Assembly: GCA_951406725.2 (NCBI GenBank)
Contig: OX597833.1
Location: 40,982,001-41,046,000 of the forward strand
Direction of reading: 5' to 3'
Source of the DNA: Octopus vulgaris
Taxonomy: Eukaryota
Length of the DNA: 64,000 bases
The notes beneath the pieces were generated by a model that saw only the letters and a program-made list of their open reading frames with translations, did not search any database and was not told where the DNA came from. A program made the translations under genes and the position numbers. Each line of letters starts with the position of its first letter. Positions within the stretch are counted from its first letter, which is position 1. This document shows positions 40,475 through 55,195 of the stretch, one piece after another.

Positions 40475-40670
40475 TACCGGTGGCGATTTTTTTCCTCCGT
40501 CTTCCCTTCCTTGGATCTTTCCTTTTCCTATGTTTCTGACGAAGAGCTCCGCTCGAAACGTTAAAGCCTCCTTCTTTCTTTCCTTTCCTGAGCGTCCAAT
40601 AACACTATACTTGTTCCACGTCCTCGCGTTATTGTGTTTTTCTTTGTGTTTTCATGTTTGGAGTAACTTT
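40475..40670 (+). mobile_element. Short hammerhead-bearing element, family C1, 3' end at (TA)n
   Basis: Three copies in the window (40475, 40992, and 44005 on minus). Motif UUU, CUGACGA, A, GAGC ucc GCUC, GAAA, CG, UU, AAA at 40532-40566. Confidence 0.8.
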
Positions 40671-50045: not shown

Positions 50046-50099
<54 letters not shown>

Positions 50100-50376
50100 A
50101 CAATTGCAGCGTGGAAGGTGTTTGTAAGCCATTTAAGAAACACACAAAAGCCGTTCGATTCACTTCAACATTTAAGTTTAATTTGTCAAAATATTTTCGT
50201 CGCTAAAATCCACGACCTGTTCACTGACAGATGCAGCACGAATTTTTGTCAGTGAACAGGTCGCGGATTTTAGCGACGAAAATATTTTGACAAATTAAAC
50301 TTAAATGTTGAAGTGAATCGAACGGCTTTTGTGTGTTTCTTAAATGGCTTACAAACACCTTCCACGATGCAATTGT
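50100..50376. repeat. 130-bp-arm near-perfect inverted repeat at (TA)n; each arm carries a hammerhead fold
   Basis: Arms 50100-50229 and 50247-50376 with about two mismatches and a 17-nt spacer; the right arm continues into a unique tail. Confidence 0.95.
50246..50293 (+). ncRNA. Minimal type I hammerhead with swapped G3:C8 core pair
   Basis: UUGUCA, GUGAACA, G, GUCGC ggauuuua GCGAC, GAAA, AUAU, UU, UGACAA. Mirror copy on the minus strand at ~50183-50229. Confidence 0.7.
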
Positions 50377-50515
50377 TTTCGTTCCAGCACACGATCTCAG
50401 ATCAAATCACTTGCTATGCGAGTACATCTTCGTAATATAAATTTATATATATGTATATATCTATGTATATGTGCATGTATGTATGTGTGTATGTACATGT
50501 ATATATGTATATGTA

Positions 50516-50727
50516 GGGCGGAGAGCTGGCAGAAACGCGAGCACGACGGCAAAATGCTTAGCGGTATTTCGTCTCTTTATGTTTTGAGTTCAAATTCCAC
50601 CGAGGTCGACTTAGCCTTTCATCCTTTCGGGGTCGATAAATTAAGTACTAGTTGCGTACTGGTGTCGATCTGATCGGCTGGCCCCCTCTCCCTAAATTTC
50701 GGGCCTTGTGCGTACGTAGAAAAGAAT
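50516..50727 (+). mobile_element. SINE family A with the alternative tail
   Basis: Same head and core as the 6509 copy but tail cccctctccctaaatttcgggccttgtgc...tagaaaagaat. Confidence 0.85.
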
Positions 50728-50841
50728 GTATGTATGTATGTGTGTGTACATAGAAAGATATAGAGTGGTACATAGATGGATAGATGGATGGATATACAAC
50801 ACACATACACACATGCAAAAACACACACACATATAAACATA

Positions 50842-53433: not shown

Positions 53434-53840
53434 ATCGTTATTTAACATTCCGATCATATCAAGTGGCCAGTATGGGAATAAAAACCTTATAAGAATTAAT
53501 TATTATTAAAATTATAATTATGGGTATCTAAGAGATACCACCATGCTAGAGATAGCAGTCAAATCTTGACTCTAAAACTACTTCATATATTCATACAGTA
53601 CAATATTTATGTGCATAGAATAGAATAAGAAAAAGAAAGTCCTTGGTGCAGTATAATTTATTTGAAAAACAGATAGCAATGGCTTTTCTGATAACTTTTA
53701 CTTTTTAATAATTAGCTGTTTATAGGTTAACTTATAAACTTTTGATTATTCAAAGGGGAAAAAATGATCAGAAAAGCCATCTCTATACAGTTTTTTTTTT
53801 CAAATATATAATACTGTACCAAGGACTTTCTCTCTTATTC

Positions 53841-53901
<61 letters not shown>

Positions 53902-53905
53902 CATA

Positions 53906-53940
<35 letters not shown>

Positions 53941-53960
53941 TTTATTGATTTATATGTTTT

Positions 53961-54480
<520 letters not shown>

Positions 54481-55195
54481 CTAAAATAATATTAGGGAGT
54501 ATAACTCCAAACTTACAGGGAAAATTTCAATTTAGTATTAAATCAAATTTCACAATATAAATATATAATATATACAAATTAGAGAAAAACCACTATTATG
54601 TAATTCGAACAATGATAGACGTAAGTCATGCCATATAGAAAAAAATATTTTATTTTTTCTATATGCTATGATTTACAATCTAAAAAACGACATAGTTTAT
54701 GATAGTATCTCTTTATGCTCCTTAACGTAGCAGTTCGGCAAATAGTGCGTGGTAGATTCATCATCTGACTGAAAAATCTCTACTAGCATCGATAAGATGA
54801 ACTAAAACTCTTGTAAGAGTAGCTCTAGTATGACTGTTGTCCAGTCCAATACCTAATAAAAGGGTGAGACAGGTATGGTCGTCTGGTTTCTGGTTAAGAA
54901 GCTGGCTTCTGGTTCAGTCCACTGTGTAGTACCTTCCTTCGGCAAGTCTCTTGTACTATAGTTCAGGGTCAACAAAGCGTTGTCCGCGAATTTGGTAGAG
55001 GGAAACTGTGAGGAAACTCGTCGTATATGAATATGTGTGTGTGTGTGTGTGTCTGTGTGTGTGTGTGTTTGTTGTGTGTGTGTACGTGTGTGTGTGCACA
55101 ACCGAATAATTGTCACATATATTTACAGATAAATTCCTCTATTTACATAATATTGAGGTCTCTTTCATTCTTTTGTTGTCTTACCATTACTATTA

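Follow-up and report, generated by a model that had tools for sequence, protein, structure and literature searches.

The closest described counterparts of the motif analyzed here are the minimal hammerhead ribozymes (min-HHR) found in the pseudo-LTRs (pLTRs) of metazoan Penelope-like elements. The sections considered of the work describing them (Cervera and de la Pena 2014, PMC4209133) list as hallmarks a bulge between positions 9 and 10.1, a G10.1-C11.1 pair in a 5-bp stem II and a palindromic, rudimentary helix III, and report thousands of dispersed single copies and opposite-strand pairs, together with minimal motifs that cut poorly and only as dimers. Among 56 representatives (text of Fig. 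S3), positions 3 and 8 are C:G in 53, U:A in 2 and U.G in 1, and the consensus bulge is H, with G in a single representative. Natural U3:A8 hammerheads are also documented by Perreault (2011, PMC3088659) and in an S. mansoni family (PMC4209133). The inverted pair, G3:C8, is familiar as an engineered C3G/G8C change. In the Penelope element of the anole (PAc), the portions considered of PMC11167929 report that single mutants at positions 3 or 8 abolish cleavage, that the double mutant partly restores it and that cleavage needs the protein; a deep scan (PMC9901934, as excerpted) finds strong rescue in that region of the core for one double mutant only, the G:C swap. No natural G3:C8 hammerhead was found in the literature searched, including the portions considered of PMC6765202, PMC6155905, PMC7761336, PMC13725137 and bioRxiv 2026.07.22.740005; a large survey of the same class (Lünse 2017) lay outside this scope and could contain one.

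Here we analyze a 64,000-nt stretch of the Octopus vulgaris genome (contig OX597833.1, positions 40,982,001 to 41,046,000 of the forward strand), referred to as the window and numbered from its first letter. Judged by its letters, predicted fold and relatives, the motif at 50245..50294 on the + strand is a minimal Penelope-element hammerhead with a natural G3:C8 pair. Assigned to the minimal type I by its fold and by alignment with sister families, it comprises a 7-bp stem I (5′ strand 50245-50251, 3′ strand 50288-94), the core GUGAACA (50252-50258, with G3 at 50252 and C8 at 50257), an extra G (50259) between A9 and G10.1, a 5-bp stem II (GUCGC/GCGAC, 50260-64/50273-77) in which the G10.1-C11.1 pair is formed, GAAA (50278-81), an AUAU loop (palindrome AAUAUU) and UU (50286-87), with the cut predicted after U17 (50287). 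U4, G5, A6, A9, GAAA and UH are all present along with a Watson-Crick 3:8 pair, and the literal core CUGANGA is replaced by GUGAACA. A preliminary description of this DNA had reported the swapped core letters, the 5-bp stem II, GAAA, the palindromic AUAU loop and UH, each of which is present on the + copy. Its statement that every element is in register has to be amended for the extra G after A9, and its 6-bp stem I measures 7 bp on this copy and 5 bp on a truncated copy on the opposite strand.

The motif shares with min-HHR (PMC4209133, sections considered) its pLTR site, the 5-bp stem II with G10.1-C11.1, the bulge between 9 and 10.1, the palindromic rudimentary helix III and the occurrence as dispersed single copies and opposite-strand pairs, and differs from the representatives in that its 3:8 pair is G:C and its bulge is G. 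Like the U3:A8 hammerheads (PMC3088659, as excerpted), it exemplifies natural covariation at 3:8, U3:A8 itself being present in two relatives of the same clade; U3:A8 involves two transitions, whereas G3:C8 is a purine-for-pyrimidine inversion requiring two transversions. The core swap is identical to the engineered C3G/G8C of PMC11167929 and PMC9901934, where activity was partially restored in the constructs reported, but it is natural, fixed in a family of more than 5,000 copies and known here from its sequence.

Folding of a 52-nt unit yields stems I and II at z = -4.0, a score that 0 of 200 shuffled sequences equalled, and in a 210-nt context the pair probabilities of stems I and II are 0.93 and 1.00. 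An 18-mer taken from the motif occurs twice in the window, where 0.02 occurrences are expected. Rfam returned no hammerhead at the gathering threshold and none at E<=10, where three chance hits were the only matches, in keeping with the earlier remark that a standard CUGANGA search would miss this motif; CUGANGA descriptors and Rfam miss the G3:C8 form, so that counts leave out thousands of motifs in each genome. The missing Rfam match and the three points at which the core context departs from the textbook one (G3, C8 and the extra G) would suit a chance resemblance, or a wrong register, with no hammerhead descent. We regard this as highly improbable: the pLTR is where these elements carry hammerheads, and sister families in the same genome bear CUGAAGA and CUGAUGA cores at the homologous position and with homologous stems, by which chance is largely refuted. 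Read against these relatives, the GUGAACA unit belongs to the hammerhead family and has exchanged both letters of its 3:8 pair.

The hammerhead lies within a short pLTR copy of a Penelope-like element (50229..50436, +), delimited by its match to full-length copies and by a pile-up of 5′ ends, which contains a likely transcription start, the hammerhead, the start of an open reading frame (ORF) and a tail. The first 31 ORF codons (MAYKHLPRC...; 50344..50436, +), identified by translation, run into the ORF body in a full-length copy (L197). The tail of about 60 nt (50378..50436, +) is present in one arm only, family copies stopping at one of two points, the short end or the tail end; by the mechanism in the portions considered of PMC11167929, it would appear to mark a second, downstream start site of reverse transcription. 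A second copy (50099..50229, -), recognized by arm comparison and fold, is inverted, 5′-truncated and without a tail; its hammerhead has G3 at 50224, U17 at 50189, the 5-bp stem I and one C-to-T change in stem II. The arms (50099-50229/50247-50377) are 131 nt long and 98% complementary, so that the interval 50183-50293, previously given as one motif, spans two opposite-strand copies. A (TA)n microsatellite (50062..50093), seen in the sequence, marks the insertion site, and most family copies are (TA)n-flanked. The insertion had been called probably young on the near-identity of its arms. Its age holds insofar as the copy belongs to the youngest subfamily (mean divergence 2.1%), with 1 difference from the subfamily majority in 131 aligned positions of the - arm and 6 in 211 of the + arm; the identity between arms alone is a weak clock. 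The + arm spans exactly -59 relative to the cut (50229) to the tail end (50436), and the window copy would be a by-product of internal initiation of reverse transcription plus an inverted second strand of insertion.

Read-through RNA of the inverted pair is predicted to fold as one long hairpin (-229.7 kcal/mol), which makes the insertion itself probably silent as a ribozyme and runs counter to the activity that the preliminary description had implied for it. The near-perfect 131-bp hairpin could also suggest a host function for this insertion, be it as a ribozyme or as a long hairpin that supplies small-RNA or editing pathways; such a role is improbable, since insertion in this family commonly yields inverted pairs, transcription of either strand reaches the antisense arm first, which would sequester the motif, and no host coding exon was recognized nearby by eye. 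To the right of the insertion, at about 50515-50730 (+), lies a SINE-like repeat that also occurs in many of the fetched loci.

The home of the motif is the pLTR of a high-copy Penelope-like retroelement encoding a reverse transcriptase (RT) and a GIY-YIG endonuclease. A core 19-mer has 5,888 exact matches in the 2.8-Gb genome and its reversed control has none, so the copy-number check proposed earlier returns a dispersed repeat. Longer copies extend upstream into an ORF that ends in a GIY-YIG domain (Pfam match above cut-off, E 3e-5, in the C-terminal 261 aa), and an 839-aa open frame contains a YVDD reverse-transcriptase motif, with the hammerhead about 1 kb past its stop. The RT assignment is based on this motif and on relatives named as RT-domain proteins; in the profile search the Pfam RT match was absent on protein P0002 and below cut-off on the sister protein P0003. 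The motif sits about 1 kb past the ORF stop in 13 of 20 loci, the other 7 being either not orientable (2) or devoid of a downstream copy within the fetched stretch (5). Locus L197 preserves the full pLTR-ORF-pLTR arrangement, with same-strand hammerheads at 1742 and 6003, 4.26 kb apart, in both pLTRs of the RT-EN element, and with the ORF start MAYKHLPRC at 1834, directly 3′ of a pLTR. Tandem pLTRs, 5′ truncation, an inverted copy and an optional tail characterize the family, and the inverted truncated copy, one-end tail and (TA)n targets match the layout described in the portions considered of PMC8557442. The order of RT and GIY-YIG is shared with the Neptune/Nematis-type C-terminal-endonuclease elements treated there, as is a CX3CxxC linker, read from the translation, and DKS replaces their DKG. 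A non-LTR retrozyme, a head-to-tail non-coding tandem with a hammerhead per unit, was rejected, the copies being linked to a coding element and scattered singly or as inverted pairs. A PDB sequence search gave no match.

The G3:C8 state is family-wide and no quirk of the window copy, as read from the copies themselves. A fixed-flank pattern finds G3:C8 in 5,043 of 5,463 genomic matches, with 300 matches lacking C8 and 120 lacking G3 with C8 retained. Among 97 copies recovered with a probe outside the motif, a sample skewed to young subfamilies and counting inverted arms twice, G3 is present in 78/78 and C8 in 79/79 covering copies, and three subfamilies (mean divergence 2.1, 2.4 and 5.2%) differ in loop II and have the core in common. 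Contigs from 4 runs under 4 organism labels carry no other letter at positions 3 and 8 at >=1% depth. One of these runs (X18, record 25) includes a 224-nt contig over window positions 50229-50325 with a different loop II, whose depth of 1,516 is far above that of the other contigs of the run.

The preliminary description had proposed preferential conservation of G3 and C8 among copies as a test, which is not what the pattern matches show: deviations amount to 2.2% at position 3 and 5.5% at position 8, no better than background. Neutral decay is expected for dead copies, so conservation among inserted copies is uninformative and the informative comparison is between lineages. Deviations at position 3 (C 13, T 29 and A 58 in 100 rows) look neutral. 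Those at position 8 (G 39, T 45 and A 15 in 99 rows of the present lineage, A, hand count) exceed the background in G (C>G 29, C>A 59; Fisher p 6e-6). Lineage-A copies with G3.G8 include L247, L269, L289-L293 and L307-L335. They were rejected as an intermediate subfamily or lineage, 32 such copies being without a common diagnostic site, their divergence being 4.9% vs 5.1% in old G3:C8 copies and C8 being present in 5/8 inverted partner arms. The excess may reflect a reverse-transcription hot spot, conversion or the remnant of an intermediate. Two lineage-A copies with C3:G8 (L185 and L191) were likewise rejected as ancestors, conversion or double mutation being equally likely; the partner arm of L191 is G3:C8 and its core matches that of sister family B, for which reason we do not take it as ancestral. 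This copy (L191:1491-1551) combines a family A body with a family B core (C3:G8, GUCAC AG), a possible conversion tract.

The 5′ ends of the 97 sampled copies bear on the use of the motif. They fall 39-63 nt before the cut in 64 copies, with the mode at -59; 88 copies run through the cut site and none starts at it, nor are ends enriched within 3 nt of the cut (3/19 nearby ends, p = 0.42). These numbers count against efficient cutting, and the position of the ends near -59 instead of at the cut suggests that most short copies were reverse-transcribed from the uncut 5′ end of the RNA. Of 46 truncated copies with the -59 base intact, 27 have a G immediately before it, 14 the templated C and 5 an A or T; for about ten of the 27, which lie at inverted junctions, the G could come from the other arm. 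A non-templated G is a trace of copying a 5′ cap, and its presence before -59 makes this position a likely transcription start, corresponding in the window to A 50229, with the predicted cut 59 nt further on. The pile-up may instead be a splice acceptor junction, as branch-point-like and pyrimidine-tract sequence lies just upstream of -59 in long copies; no upstream exon is common to the copies, which speaks against splicing. By analogy with the anole element, for which the mechanism is shown in the portions considered of PMC11167929, most short copies are products of reverse transcription initiated internally, within the start of the ORF.

The passage of 88/97 copies through the cut also fits an alternative in which the fold is kept without any cutting in vivo, as a structural or protein-binding element of the leader, the double swap having drifted to fixation in one source lineage. 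The excess of G3.G8 single revertants among copies is in line with it, as is the anole element, in which cleavage is dispensable for insertion in vitro and reads do not end at the cut site (PMC11167929, portions considered). We hold this alternative to be possible, albeit doubtful, in light of the comparison between lineages.

Three families in this genome have the stems in homologous positions. When the pattern fixes G8 and leaves position 3 open, it has 906 genomic matches, and the first 100 carry C3 in 69, U3 in 14, G3 in 14 and A3 in 3 (hand count). Family B (C3:G8) has the same UGUCA and bulged G, a stem II reading GUCAC/GUGAC and, further downstream, a homologous ORF start, and the closing pair of its stem I is broken in 4/5 aligned copies. 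Family C (L217-L246), also C3:G8 and with 54% protein identity, is young, with many intact 1,312-aa frames, and carries A9C in both repeats; A9C occupies 34 of 100 rows, and older copies keep A9 (3 rows). The sister protein P0003 has a 100% identity match in the genome. In an alignment of 14 rows from families A, B and C, the 3:8 pair is formed in 14/14 (C:G 8, G:C 6), a figure that stands for about three independent states and not fourteen, the rows being related. Two-sided changes are also seen in stems I, II and III, and pairing reaches 86% vs 28-47% in slid controls, a contrast at odds with chance resemblance, the significance of which the shuffle control overstates. U4, G5, A6, GAAA and U16.1 are invariant in these rows, against a mean column identity of 74%, which argues against a fold maintained without cutting.

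Relatives on metagenome contigs extend the comparison. A metagenome scan with a single element protein found no relatives; of 19 metagenome loci, 6 have a clear hammerhead 3′ of the ORF, 1 has an unpaired motif and the other 12, many being too short, have none. Four distant relatives (29-46% protein identity) carry C:G (L367, L370) or U:A (L368, L369), and the seven lineages compared, from which the remote L382 and L385 (about 25% identity) were left out, are always Watson-Crick at 3:8 (C:G 4, U:A 2, G:C 1). The bulged G is present in all four distant relatives and in all seven lineages. In L383, a hammerhead-like motif at 1736, 3′ of the ORF of a remote relative, has A3/G8 unpaired.

The 3:8 tertiary pair matters for the active hammerhead fold. 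That it is Watson-Crick in seven of seven lineages, in three forms, points to selection on the pair in the source elements, seven lineages being few, and weighs against a non-cutting leader element. Such an element would, in turn, accord with the fixation of A9C in the young sister family and its recurrence, together with U3:A8, in a distant relative (L368:2497); in the young and intact family C, A9C indicates that core letters can change without stopping transposition. In the tree, families A and C are sisters with full support, and deeper forks between distant relatives are not fixed. C:G in both sister families and in most outgroups suggests that G3:C8 was derived from C3:G8, and only once.

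Would the swapped core cut? The preliminary description had relied on the rescue of activity by compensatory swaps, which is borne out to different degrees by the sources as excerpted: partially in a Penelope-element hammerhead (PMC11167929), strongly in the deep scan (PMC9901934). According to the portion considered of PMC3884650, a G3-C8 variant shows higher activity with G17 than with C17, whence position 17 matters. G3 of the present motif is predicted to be able to wobble-pair with U17 (probability 0.67), extending stem I, and a cofold of two units recovered no clean dimer helix III. In a viroid hammerhead, an extra G at the bulge is reportedly harmful. Self-cleavage of the motif is likely, at a low or slow rate.

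On balance, the motif is probably a G3:C8 minimal type I hammerhead of a high-copy Penelope-like pseudo-LTR that still cuts slowly in transcripts of full-length elements, and not in the inverted insertion of the window. The hammerhead is placed downstream of the likely transcription start and upstream of the start codon. Transcription would start 59 nt before the cut; the palindrome AAUAUU would form helix III between two copies, and slow cutting would take place in a dimer or be assisted by the protein that the element encodes. The effect of the cut would be to sever the capped leader from an ORF beginning 56 nt downstream; insertion itself would not require it.

If slow cutting in full-length transcripts holds, the family would provide a natural example of an inverted C3-G8 pair otherwise found as a laboratory mutant in the literature searched, and would complete natural covariation at the pair of the hammerhead's active fold. 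The three sister families of this genome (canonical, G3:C8 and A9C) share homologous stems and have recently active proteins; they offer a ready comparison bearing on the role of Penelope-element hammerheads, most inserted copies coming from uncut RNA. A more speculative extension, which we consider unlikely as a whole, is that the clade constitutes a natural mutagenesis series of the hammerhead core (C:G, U:A and G:C at 3:8, A9C twice, always a G bulge) with a ribozyme tuned for slow, protein-triggered action that would remove the capped leader from the element's mRNA, switching translation or providing feedback, and would not serve to make the insertion template; the G3:C8 lineage would then have crossed an unpaired G3.G8 state, its trace being the excess of G8 copies.

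Elsewhere in the window, an open frame fragment at 53835-54491 (-) resembles the thumb region of a Penelope-type reverse transcriptase. Two copies of another repeat, at 40536 and 41052 (+), carry a minimal hammerhead with a canonical core (CUGACGA), an A bulge, a 4-bp stem II and an ACGU loop, and some copies of this repeat elsewhere have U4C.
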